Part shown: positions 8,428 through 9,690 of the stretch, piece after piece
How positions within the stretch are numbered: the first letter of the stretch is position 1
Layout: each line of letters opens with the position of its first letter
Origin: a virus
IMG/VR virus record: IMGVR_UViG_3300028844_004984
Direction: 5' to 3' (one strand)
DNA: 64,000 nucleotides
The notes under the pieces: generated by a model
Database searches by the model: none
The model's input: only the letters and a program-made list of their open reading frames with translations
Told to the model about the DNA's origin: nothing
Program-made: the position numbers and the translations under genes

Positions 8428-9690
8428 ATGGTTGAATTTCTTAGTGAAGGAAGTATATCTATAAACAAAGTATATATTCATCCCGTTTGGGAGAGTATAT
8501 CGGTACACCCACATAATGATGGGTTATCGTTGTTGTATATATATGATATAGAATCCGATAGGGAAATTGTAATCAACCTAAAAAACATCGATATACATAT
8601 AACCTCTTTGGAGAAGTTTAAGTTTCTATTTAAAGAGGCTTATGTGTACGATAACAAATCGTTGATGAATCACATTCAGATTCCAAATTCATATGATGCA
8701 AGTTTGGTTAAGTACTTACAATCGAACCACCCATTGGAATCGAAACTAACTCCAACACATACATTCTATCAACGTAGGTTCAGTAACCTAAAGGGAGTAA
8801 ACAATCTTATTCCAATCTCTAAACATATAGAATCCATCAGAGATACAAAAGATGAATTCATAGAGTATTACGATTTGGGCGGGGGAGAGTTCGATTGTGT
8901 GAAGAAATTTGAAAATTTCTATATCAAGCCACTTCACAAAGTAGAAAAGAATGGAATCAAAACCGAAGGGGGTATGGAGTGGACTCAGTATCACCCATTC
9001 ACTATCACATCACGACCTTCAAACAATTATGGTGGGGTAAATTATGCGGCATTGAATAAAGATGATGGGAGTAGGGATAGATTCGTAAGTAGGTTCAAAG
9101 GGGGGAAGTTGATTCAATTTGATTATGATGCATATCACCCTCGTATCATTGGTAAAATGGTAGATGAACCTATTCCAATAGATATAAGCGGTCACCAAGC
9201 ACTTGCCGATATGTATGGTGTATCCTATGGTGAATCAAAGGGAATTACGTTCCGACAACTATATGGTGGGGTACAATCGGAATATCTACATATTCCGTTG
9301 TTTTCCAAAGTTTCACACAAAATTGATTTGATGTGGATGGAATTCAATCGTAGGGGATATATTAAAACGCCATTGGGTAGGAGATTATCAAAGAGTAGTT
9401 TGAAAGATATGAATGCCAACAAACTATTCAACTATTTACTCCAAGCAACAGAAACGGAGTTGAATATGAGAATACTAACTAAGGTGGTAGACTTTTTAAA
9501 AGATAAGAAGTCCAAAATGGTTTTATACACTTATGATTCATATTTATTGGATATACATCCCGATGAAGTTAGTATTTTACAGAATTTAAAGATACTTATA
9601 GAAGGGAATGGATTCCCTGCAAAAATGGAAATTGGAGATAGATATTCTGAAATGAAATCTACAGATATTGAAACACTGGATATAGTATGA
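8428..9690 (+). CDS. Compact divergent family A DNA polymerase-like protein
   Basis: 'TITSRPSN' (TxTGRLSS), motif A 'FDYDAYHPR', motif B 'KGITFRQLYG', 'NYLLQATETE', motif C 'YTYDSYLLD'. Confidence 0.8.
   Translation: MVEFLSEGSISINKVYIHPVWESISVHPHNDGLSLLYIYDIESDREIVINLKNIDIHITSLEKFKFLFKEAYVYDNKSLMNHIQIPNSYDASLVKYLQSNHPLESKLTPTHTFYQRRFSNLKGVNNLIPISKHIESIRDTKDEFIEYYDLGGGEFDCVKKFENFYIKPLHKVEKNGIKTEGGMEWTQYHPFTITSRPSNNYGGVNYAALNKDDGSRDRFVSRFKGGKLIQFDYDAYHPRIIGKMVDEPIPIDISGHQALADMYGVSYGESKGITFRQLYGGVQSEYLHIPLFSKVSHKIDLMWMEFNRRGYIKTPLGRRLSKSSLKDMNANKLFNYLLQATETELNMRILTKVVDFLKDKKSKMVLYTYDSYLLDIHPDEVSILQNLKILIEGNGFPAKMEIGDRYSEMKSTDIETLDIV

Follow-up and report, generated by a model that had tools for sequence, protein, structure and literature searches.

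The 420-aa protein encoded at positions 8428–9690 of the window, the whole 64,000-nt stretch of phage DNA analysed here, belongs, on sequence comparison, to the already published divPolA1 family, and its predicted structure is that of a miniature, one-chain version of the large fragment of Pol I with a complete palm, trimmed fingers and a two-helix thumb stump. The gene adds another member to a family that was itself previously known. On balance, the protein probably serves as an active accessory, non-proofreading, short-patch DNA polymerase beside the PolB replisome.

Table 1. Coordinates of the polymerase gene, its domains and motifs, and the neighbouring genes in the window
Feature	Position	Strand	Basis
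divPolA1-type miniature family-A DNA polymerase, 420 aa	8428..9690	+	ORF, ATG start
Vestigial 3′-5′ exonuclease lobe, ~residues 1–125, presumably inactive	8428..8802	+	model alignment
Thumb remnant: two helices, residues 130–149 and 156–175	8815..8952	+	DSSP of model
Motif A LIQFDYDAYHPRI: catalytic D232; H237 at Klenow E710 steric-gate position	9109..9147	+	profile alignment
Motif B / O-helix YGESKGITFRQLYG: K271, F275, Y279 kept; Y267 replaces Klenow R754	9226..9267	+	
Motif C LYTYDSYLLD: D370 catalytic; Klenow H881 and E883 replaced by Y369 and S371	9523..9552	+	
Hypervariable large ORF, 737 aa, between divPolA1 and small conserved neighbour	9687..11900	+	
Conserved 129-aa protein (cl1), candidate divPolA1 partner	11913..12302	+	strict co-occurrence
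gp32-like ssDNA-binding protein	13233..14015	+	PF08804 3.9e-14; PHROG 1192
RecA/UvsX-type recombinase	14027..15151	+	PF00154 2.2e-59
Stand-alone 5′-3′ exonuclease, FEN / RNase H type	15129..16172	+	PF02739 3e-32; PF01367 4e-12
DnaB-type replicative helicase	16209..17567	+	PF03796 3.4e-20
Replicative family-B DNA polymerase with proofreading domain, 838 aa	24550..27066	+	PF00136 7e-43; PF03104 2.9e-26
Sliding clamp, gp45-like	27130..27825	+	PHROG 223 'DNA polymerase processivity factor' 3.5e-12
Clamp loader large subunit, gp44-like	29039..29971	+	PHROG 168 1.9e-82

Family membership and distribution

The divPolA1 family comes from a computational study (Virol J 2024;21:200), which names phage immuto as the prototype, lists 14 divPolA1 phages and places the enzyme in large phage genomes (155–190 kb) that encode it besides a regular family A, B or C DNA polymerase. 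In tblastn searches, the 420-aa protein matched gene 1 of Flavobacterium phage immuto ('DNA polymerase family A'; 29% identity over 79% of the query, 8e-38) and Microcystis phage Mel-JY01 (1e-40), and it was 27–29% identical to the cultured divPolA1 examples. It was also matched by PHROG 17 and 2573 ('DNA polymerase'). The PF00476 score of 20.5 bits was below the 34.3 cut-off and covered residues 292–386 only; a precomputed PF00476 match was present in many close homologues. Since 2839 homologues and, separately, 466 representative clusters below 1e-30 were found, all of ~400–470 aa, the divPolA1 features described here are not due to chance. Metagenomes hold hundreds of divPolA1 clusters at 50% identity, and the family is very abundant in aquatic viromes, Tara Oceans samples included. 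The sequence-only reading had noted a 420-aa ORF with motifs A, B and C alongside a complete PolB, and both are present; all nine large relatives checked likewise keep divPolA1 plus a regular DNA polymerase, which is PolB in seven and PolA in two.

Fold and architecture

The AF2 model of the 420-aa protein (pLDDT 96.2) found its best Foldseek match in Klenow (1kfd, 1.2e-16), and VIA aligned model residues 1–411 with KlenTaq and Bst LF at Z 27–28 and ~3.1 Å rmsd over 342–389 residues. From its residue 1 onward, the model aligned to KlenTaq 295–832 and Bst 300–876, the N-terminal lobe falling on the exonuclease lobe of Pol I (VIA). All of the best 50 matches in both the Foldseek and the VIA searches were DNA polymerases, and none was an RNA polymerase. 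The profile alignment jumped from Klenow chain position 235 to 306, which left ~70 thumb residues unmatched, and only two helices connect the exonuclease lobe to the palm in the model (Table 1). The reduction of the thumb and exonuclease regions, suspected earlier from the sequence, was thus confirmed.

Of the acidic residues at positions 1–125, D90 alone reached 70% conservation or more among 133 family members, and replacement of the exonuclease aspartates of divPolA1 is reported in Virol J 2024;21:200; the lobe is presumably vestigial and inactive. His27, His53 and Asp90 of this lobe were considered as a new active site and rejected, as position 53 is Asn in this copy. Inspection by eye of the termini (MVEFLSEG..., ...IETLDIV) found no clamp-binding aromatic tag, and in a promoter and terminator scan of positions 7000–13300 the promoter counts were the same as in shuffled sequences.

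Active-site conservation and sugar selection

Conservation was counted across 133 diverse divPolA1 representatives that are otherwise ~33% identical. Motif A (DYDAYHPR) lies in residues 228–241, LIQFDYDAYHPRII, where the codon for His237 is CAC (9136–9138). The family profile, DydaYHlR, aligned on DYSQIELR of Klenow without gaps (E 7e-12), which places His237 on Glu710, and the claim of a His at the Klenow E710 sugar-gate position was thereby borne out. This His was found in 132 of the 133 members. Motif B reads SKGITFRQLYGG, with the core KGITFRQLYG containing K271, F275 and Y279. In motif C, the YDS of Y369, D370 and S371 stood opposite HDE of Taq in the phmmer alignment, and this change, which had also been pointed out before, proved to be family-wide.

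According to the profile alignment, R196, K271, F275, Y279 and Q339 are equivalent to Klenow R668, K758, F762, Y766 and Q849. R196, D232, K271, E342 and D370 were invariant (133/133), E342 at a position where Klenow carries Ala852; Q339 and Y369 each occurred in 132 members, Y279 in 131 and F275 in 130. The column of Klenow R754 held Tyr in 85 members, Ile in 19, Val in 10 and Arg in 6, and the column of S371 (Klenow E883) held Ser in 116, Ala in 13 and Gly in 4, the Glu being replaced in all. Judged by these alignments, the family departs from Pol I in three places throughout: Glu710 is changed to His, Arg754 mostly to a hydrophobic residue or Tyr, and Glu883 to Ser, Ala or Gly. The two-Asp catalytic centre is intact, and the Klenow-type contacts to primer/template and dNTP are kept. 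With the equivalents of E710, R754 and E883 replaced, both the kinetics and the sugar selectivity could differ strongly from those of Pol I.

The invariance or near-invariance, at ~33% identity, of the Asp pair, the O-helix Lys/Phe/Tyr and the equivalents of R668 and Q849 is the hallmark of a functional active site. Loss of the Glu883 and Arg754 equivalents and the PF00476 score below the gathering threshold could be taken to indicate that a former polymerase has lost catalysis and now acts as a scaffold or regulator, and the near-invariance of these same residues across the 133 members makes this extremely unlikely.

T7-type RNA polymerases carry an HDSF motif, which the YDS(F) of divPolA1 motif C resembles. 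This RNA polymerase-like motif, the replacement of the gate Glu in 132 of 133 members and of Glu883 in all of them, and the shortened thumb are what would be expected of a sugar-relaxed or priming enzyme capable of rNTP incorporation, primer extension or de novo synthesis, perhaps in a two-subunit form with the 129-aa neighbour as in CCPol-MP. We consider such an enzyme quite unlikely here. Astatke and colleagues, cited in PMC10201439, are reported to have found in 1998 that removing the bulk of the Klenow gate (E710A) admits rNTPs, whereas the His side chain is bulky, so that replacing the gate residue need not open the gate; most likely, H237 is still a bulky gate or a sugar contact and does not make the site accessible to rNTPs. 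The residues with which DNA polymerases typically check the minor groove are also in place (R196 in 133/133, Q339 in 132/133), and RNA polymerases did not appear among the best 50 structural matches. The suggestion in the sequence-only reading of a repurposed nucleotidyltransferase accepting rNTPs, or of a primase-like enzyme, was not upheld, given the DNA polymerase hallmarks that are kept (R196, Q339, F275, Y279, K271) and the exclusively DNA polymerase structures among these best 50.

Replication context and the primase question

The window belongs to a 113-kb contig, estimated to be ~59% complete and collinear with a 176-kb, 97%-complete relative. The order SSB-RecA-FEN-DnaB-RNR downstream of divPolA1 was common to this contig, immuto and 80 IMG/VR loci, and the complete PolB with its clamp and clamp loader followed ~15 kb downstream of divPolA1. 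The 737-aa ORF that separates the polymerase from its small conserved neighbour matched no Pfam family and gave only a weak PHROG match of unknown function; in related loci its position was empty or occupied by unrelated ORFs of up to 2136 aa. The same replication region also contains two Mom-family genes, a DruA-like gene, several glycosyltransferases and a MazG-like gene. The divPolA1 gene lies at the border of the baseplate module and, when set against the 97%-complete relative, is as diverged as that module (41%) vs 65–83% for the downstream genes, which speaks against the accessory role proposed below.

The sequence-only reading had further remarked that no primase was seen, and the observation stood: profiles of Zn_ribbon_DnaG, Toprim_2 and Prim-Pol gave no match in the 113-kb, ~59%-complete contig, window included, and tblastn of the primase ORFs of five relatives against the contig found none (best E 0.6). 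As an argument for priming by the polymerase it did not stand, because the contig is incomplete and the primase gene of the collinear 97%-complete relative maps past its end, so that absence from the contig is not absence from the phage. Immuto has an annotated DnaG primase, and a Toprim ORF of 311–333 aa is present in Mel-JY01 as well as in each of the three IMG/VR relatives of highest completeness. With a conventional DnaG-type primase in the relatives, a priming role for divPolA1 is not needed, which also argues against the priming enzyme considered above. For the window, the practical result is annotation of the gene as a divPolA1 accessory polymerase; its presence does not show that the phage lacks a primase or has exchanged it for another enzyme.

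A conserved 129-aa neighbour

The 129-aa protein (cl1) was encoded in 75 of 75 related loci with more than 1.7 kb of downstream sequence, and among 50,697 phage records it occurred in only six, the same six that carry divPolA1, either adjacent to the polymerase gene or 1.6 kb downstream. Its AF2 model (pLDDT 92.8) predicts two beta-alpha-beta-beta halves. No family was matched in Pfam or PHROG, a profile search of PDB sequences returned chance-level matches only (E at least 0.15), and Foldseek gave nothing below E 0.09, its top matches being GyrI-like proteins with very poor TM-scores. The wide VIA search reached at best Z 6.4, to ACT/ferredoxin-like domains over residues 1–65, which is within the background range; OB-fold proteins were not among the structure matches listed. 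A TLDc assignment proposed by an ESM Atlas feature search (0.95) is considered tentative, as no fold search backed it. In a mirror-tree comparison, the partial rank correlation of pairwise identities was 0.32 for divPolA1/cl1 vs 0.34 for divPolA1/gp32. From its pattern of co-occurrence, the 129-aa protein is a candidate accessory subunit of divPolA1. The accessible part of Virol J 2024;21:200 does not describe this neighbour, the invariant gate His or the missing equivalents of R754 and E883.

The strict co-occurrence of a small neighbour gene is a further point in favour of a priming enzyme, for which CCPol-MP offers a precedent, a short PolA that together with a small partner constitutes a primase (PMC7581432; PMC10061031). 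CCPol-MP itself, however, retains the discriminating residues and uses dNTPs (PMC7581432), so rNTP use by divPolA1 would not follow from the analogy, and the two predicted beta-alpha-beta-beta halves of cl1 appear unlike the OB-fold MP. We are equally doubtful that divPolA1 and the 129-aa protein form a two-subunit polymerase in which the rewired pocket, with its His gate, Ser in place of Glu883 and no Arg in motif B, has a substrate range new to family A. Were this true, for example if the enzyme incorporated rNMPs efficiently, handled RNA primers or carried out de novo synthesis primed by dNTPs, it would represent a new functional class of phage replication enzyme.

Proposed role

The accessory role that we favour would make divPolA1 a template-dependent DNA polymerase, without proofreading and of low intrinsic processivity, that assists a T4-like replisome of PolB, clamp and loader. 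It would carry out short-patch synthesis, such as Okazaki-gap filling once the neighbouring stand-alone FEN has removed the primer, and/or extend RecA/gp32 recombination intermediates, possibly working with the 129-aa protein. In function it would match the Klenow part of a Pol I divided into separate proteins.

The context of divPolA1 could fit a more central part in replication: Virol J 2024;21:200 reports it as more conserved, with replication genes around it, than that of the regular DNA polymerase; the regular enzyme swaps among families A, B and C there, and divPolA1 stays constant. In its strongest form this would make divPolA1 the core replicase, rendered processive by the 129-aa partner or another factor, and would leave another role to the regular polymerase. 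We regard this as very unlikely, for divPolA1 lacks both proofreading and the motif-B Arg and has kept just a thumb stump, the PolB here is grouped with clamp and clamp loader as in T4, and an enzyme with a dead exonuclease is not likely to replicate a genome of ~190 kb. Moreover, divPolA1 evolves faster than all neighbouring replication proteins: its median identity to the window copy was 36%, compared to 45–61% for FEN, DnaB, gp32 and RecA.

Specialisation for hypermodified phage DNA, with the Mom-type and glycosyl modifications that this phage seems to produce and which PolB or host Pol I might handle poorly, would agree with the Mom-family, DruA-like, glycosyltransferase and MazG-like genes of the replication region, with the nucleotide-modification genes that Virol J 2024;21:200 reports around the regular DNA polymerases of divPolA1 phages, and with PolA variants adapted to modified templates in other phages (PMC10201439). 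The substitutions E710H, R754Y and E883S, though, fall at the sugar/triphosphate and metal site and not at base contacts, and it is PolB, not divPolA1, that sits amid the modification genes; we judge this specialisation unlikely.

In this phage lineage divPolA1 stays constant, whereas the main replicase is freely exchanged. Being a natural family-A enzyme of ~420 aa in which the gate His is fixed and the motif-B Arg is gone, it would be a useful test of the steric gate, and it could serve as a compact scaffold for polymerase engineering.

Comparison with known systems

The closest likeness within the family is to the immuto-type divPolA1 proteins, which share the length of ~420–440 aa, the palm catalytic residues, the short-cut thumb and the position beside a regular DNA polymerase; the locus analysed here differs in having the 737-aa hypervariable ORF and a LamG-domain ORF inserted after the polymerase gene. 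With Klenow, KlenTaq and Bst LF, divPolA1 has in common the whole-chain architecture (Z 27–28) and motifs A, B and C, and with KlenTaq and Bst LF also an exonuclease lobe that is, presumably, vestigial and inactive. It is ~120–160 residues shorter than these enzymes, the thumb tip being missing and the exonuclease lobe and fingers trimmed, and it differs from Klenow by His for E710, Tyr for R754, Tyr for H881 and Ser for E883. Unlike Pol I, it has no fused 5′-3′ exonuclease, the FEN being a separate gene.

CCPol-MP of SCCmec and related mobile elements of Bacillota (eLife 2020;9:e55478; Front Mol Biosci 2023;10:1113960) is similarly a shortened family-A polymerase without proofreading, and its gene lies close to those for a small protein and a replicative helicase. 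No sequence relationship between CCPol and divPolA1 was seen beyond family A. CCPol has only three exonuclease helices, whereas divPolA1 has a whole vestigial lobe; the partner MP is an OB-fold SSB, whereas the neighbour of divPolA1 does not appear OB-like in its predicted model; CCPol retains the ribonucleotide-discriminating residues; and the divPolA1 phages have a separate DnaG-type primase. The divPolA2 of barbaviruses, also from Virol J 2024;21:200, is likewise a divergent PolA without an exonuclease that aquatic phages encode in addition to a regular PolB. It is distinguished by a globular N-terminal domain of unrelated type, by a gene context that varies and by RNA polymerase-like structural matches. 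In contrast, the 420-aa protein combines a Klenow-like N-terminal lobe with a fixed gene context, and its best 50 structural matches are DNA polymerases only.

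Identity and active site of the miniature polymerase

The second polymerase gene of the window (Table) carries a motif A region at residues 228−241 (LIQFDYDAYHPRII, with codon CAC at 9136−9138 encoding His237), a motif B (SKGITFRQLYGG) and a motif C (LYTYDSYLLD). Re-reading and alignment agreed with the sequence-only reading on its length, its three motifs and the YDS replacing HDE. PHROGs labels the product DNA polymerase, the Pfam PF00476 match was sub-threshold (20.5 bits against a cut-off of 34.3) and limited to residues 292−386, and phmmer against PDB aligned Taq to residues 288−393 with YDS falling on HDE. 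Among 50,697 phage records, tblastn gave six strong matches: Microcystis phage Mel-JY01, four Flavobacterium phage immuto records and one 484-kb uncultured phage. In immuto, gene 1 is the homologue; it carries the annotation ‘DNA polymerase family A’ and precedes SSB, RecA, 5′-3′ exonuclease, DnaB and RNR, an order matched in the window by gp32, RecA, FEN, DnaB and RNR. It is near certain that the window polymerase belongs to the group already described as divPolA1 (bioRxiv 10.1101/2024.04.26.591309; Virol J 2024;21:200, PMC11348598).

A profile of 133 diverse divPolA1 representatives, run against PDB sequences, matched Klenow at E 7e-12, and its motif A block was gap-free (family LvefDydaYHlrLia, Klenow IVSADYSQIELRIMA). 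The register was judged sound because R668 and D705 came out at their established numbers when residues were counted along the Klenow chain. D232 then corresponds to D705 and H237 to E710, which upheld the earlier claim of a His at the sugar gate, present in 132/133 representatives. The other equivalences were R196/R668, K271/K758, F275/F762, Y279/Y766, Q339/Q849, Y369/H881, D370/D882 and S371/E883. No representative departs from D232, D370, K271 or R196, and F275, Y279 and Q339 hardly vary. By this alignment, the enzyme keeps the Klenow-type contacts to the template minor groove and primer terminus (R668, Q849) and to the dNTP (K758, F762, Y766), and such retention of DNA-polymerase checking residues argues against a primase or rNTP-using enzyme; the invariant active site likewise argues against an inactive scaffold. 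The H881 position is Tyr in 132/133 representatives, the E883 position is Ser in 116, Ala in 13 and Gly in 4, and the R754 position, Y267 in the window copy, is Tyr in 85, Ile in 19, Val in 10 and Arg in only 6. E342, whose Klenow counterpart is Ala852, is invariant.

Predicted structure

In an AlphaFold2 model with the 133-member alignment as input (pLDDT 96.2, pTM 0.93), the chain adopts the fold of the Pol I large fragment, and both Asp residues of the catalytic centre are in place. Foldseek ranked the Klenow structure 1kfd first (E 1.2e-16, TMq 0.73); 50/50 of the matches listed were family A DNA polymerases. The structural comparison with Klenow-type polymerases proposed in the sequence-only reading returned the large-fragment fold as well: VIA-align superposed 342−389 residues on KlenTaq and Bst large fragment at Z 27−28 and rmsd ~3.1 Å. 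Model residues 1−411 cover KlenTaq 295−832 and Bst 300−876, so the modelled enzyme is a miniature of the entire large fragment rather than a bare polymerase domain.

The suspected reduction of the exonuclease and thumb regions was evident in both model and profile alignment. Residues 1 to ~125 form a shrunken exonuclease lobe in which D90 is the sole acidic residue shared by 70% or more of the members, and presumably the four-carboxylate exonuclease site cannot form. The thumb is almost absent, being reduced to two helices (residues 130−175) with ~70 Klenow thumb residues lacking a counterpart, and motifs A and C are 138 residues apart compared with 177 in Klenow. In the vestigial lobe (8428−8802), His27, His53 and Asp90 are each conserved in ~123−124/133 members, position 53 being Asn in the window copy; they may mark an interface or a metal site.

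Gene neighbourhood

Gene order was very fixed across 80 IMG/VR divPolA1 loci: baseplate-like genes, divPolA1, a hypervariable slot, the small conserved gene cl1, gp32, RecA, FEN and DnaB. The PAAR-like gene is kept three genes upstream in most related loci, so divPolA1 lies directly at the border of the baseplate and replication modules. Across related loci the slot ranges from nothing at all to unrelated ORFs of 180−2136 aa, a pattern that recalls host-range or anti-defence cargo.

Features of the polymerase locus and the main replicase in window coordinates
Feature	Coordinates	Strand	Remarks
PAAR-like/baseplate-tip protein	5161-5460		99 aa; PHROG 7145, 6.7e-12
divPolA1 polymerase	8428-9690	+	ATG start; 420 aa
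Hypervariable-slot ORF	9687-11900		737 aa; long acidic stretch
cl1	11913-12302		129 aa
gp32	13233-14015		downstream of divPolA1
RecA	14027-15151		downstream of divPolA1
FEN	15129-16172		downstream of divPolA1
DnaB	16209-17567		followed by RNR
Family B DNA polymerase (PolB)	24550-27066		complete, with exonuclease domain

Median identity to the window copy was 36% for divPolA1, 42% for cl1, 45% for FEN, 52% for DnaB, 54% for gp32 and 61% for RecA, and divPolA1 fell below gp32 and RecA in 46/46 loci; judged by these identities, it evolves faster than its replication neighbours. Against G001, a 97%-complete collinear IMG/VR relative, the baseplate-like genes and divPolA1 (window 1−9690; contig 26584−36841) are only 30−41% identical and the genes on both sides 65−89%. 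This block is mosaic, and a recombination boundary seems to lie between divPolA1 and the next gene. A Bacteroidota host is suggested by a 1170-aa protein (53624−57136) that combines a carbohydrate-binding module with a type IX secretion sorting domain at its C terminus (Por_Secre_tail, 8e-10).

Interspersed among the PolB, clamp and loader genes are a tandem pair of Mom-family genes, a DruA-like gene and no fewer than four glycosyltransferase genes (21316−22858, 23413−24546, 27825−29039, 33488−36201, 50987−52198), an arrangement that suggests DNA hypermodification. Their proximity would also suggest a polymerase specialised for hypermodified DNA; however, the distinctive substitutions of divPolA1 fall within the site for sugar, phosphate and metal rather than on base-contacting positions.

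Primase and the 129-aa neighbour

As the sequence-only reading had stated, no primase was found in the window, and neither a Zn-ribbon/Toprim or Prim-Pol primase nor a tblastn match to the relatives’ primase ORFs was detectable in the 113-kb contig. That contig is 59% complete (CheckV), and its relatives do carry a primase: immuto an annotated DnaG (immuto35A_179), and Mel-JY01 and each of the three IMG/VR relatives of highest completeness (97, 81 and 73%) a Toprim ORF of 311−333 aa. The contig is collinear with G001 over ~18.4−144.6 kb (G001 coordinates, matching orientation), and the G001 primase lies at ~170 kb, ~25 kb past the contig end. The absence is thus most simply a missing assembly piece, and divPolA1 need not be assigned a priming role. 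Of the earlier interpretation, the second miniature family A polymerase beside a complete PolB stood, and the priming role argued from the missing primase was not supported.

cl1 was present in 75/75 loci reaching >1.7 kb downstream and restricted to exactly the six divPolA1-carrying records among the 50,697; it directly adjoins divPolA1 in immuto and Mel-JY01 and lies 1.6 kb downstream in the 484-kb phage. Thousands of other phages have gp32 and RecA, and cl1 therefore tracks divPolA1 rather than either of these. Its confident model (pLDDT 92.8) has two beta-alpha-beta-beta halves. HRKK occurs as a motif in the sequence, and L5, F9, Y75, N78, N81, D93 and W100 are invariant; searches of Pfam, PHROGs, PDB sequences and PDB structures gave no convincing relative. 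The pairing makes a CCPol-MP-like primase or an rNTP-using enzyme possible, CCPol-MP being a truncated PolA that primes with a small partner (PMC7581432; PMC10061031). Both systems place a truncated PolA near a small protein, but cl1 does not look OB-like in the model, the divPolA1 lineage has an ordinary primase, and CCPol itself uses dNTPs.

Proposed role

We consider most likely, at somewhat better than even confidence, that divPolA1 is an active, accessory, template-directed, non-proofreading polymerase of low processivity used for short-patch synthesis. His237 probably still touches or blocks the 2′ position, because rNTPs reportedly gain entry to Klenow when side-chain bulk is removed at this position (E710A; work ascribed to Astatke et al., 1998, cited in PMC10201439). 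T7-type RNA polymerases have HDS in this motif, so YDS should still permit catalysis. Loss of the motif B Arg suggests weaker triphosphate binding; speculatively, the nearly invariant K211, a neighbour of the R682 position, might compensate.

An accessory enzyme is most plausible because a T4-like replisome is encoded here (PolB with gp45-like clamp and gp44-like clamp loader) and a regular replicase in 9/9 large relatives checked (seven PolB, two PolA). A gene-context remark in Virol J 2024;21:200 hints at a core replicase, to which an exonuclease-dead, thumbless, fast-evolving enzyme is a poor fit. As an accessory polymerase, divPolA1 would help to mature Okazaki fragments and take part in recombination-dependent repair or replication, much like the polymerase portion of a Pol I split in two; such a role fits its fixed companions, the stand-alone FEN, RecA and gp32.

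Relation to the published family

The divPolA1 paper covers a group of 14 phages centred on immuto, with genomes of 155−190 kb and, in every case, a regular polymerase of family A, B or C as well. According to it, the catalytic residues of the palm are conserved, the thumb is truncated, the exonuclease aspartates are replaced and the replication genes downstream are conserved (Virol J 2024;21:200, PMC11348598). The window polymerase is a further member, with the palm residues, truncated thumb, regular polymerase and downstream genes all present; its exonuclease lobe aligns from residue 1, with D90 the only widely conserved acidic residue. The family is much larger than the 14 published phages: a word-indexed search found 2839 homologous proteins and an exhaustive search, counting hits below 1e-30, yielded 466 clusters (50% identity), nearly all 400−470 aa and many from marine samples. 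Neither the fixed gate His, nor the loss of the Arg and Glu, nor the exclusive 129-aa neighbour is mentioned in the accessible part of that paper (PMC11348598); though details of a known family, these features merit biochemical test.
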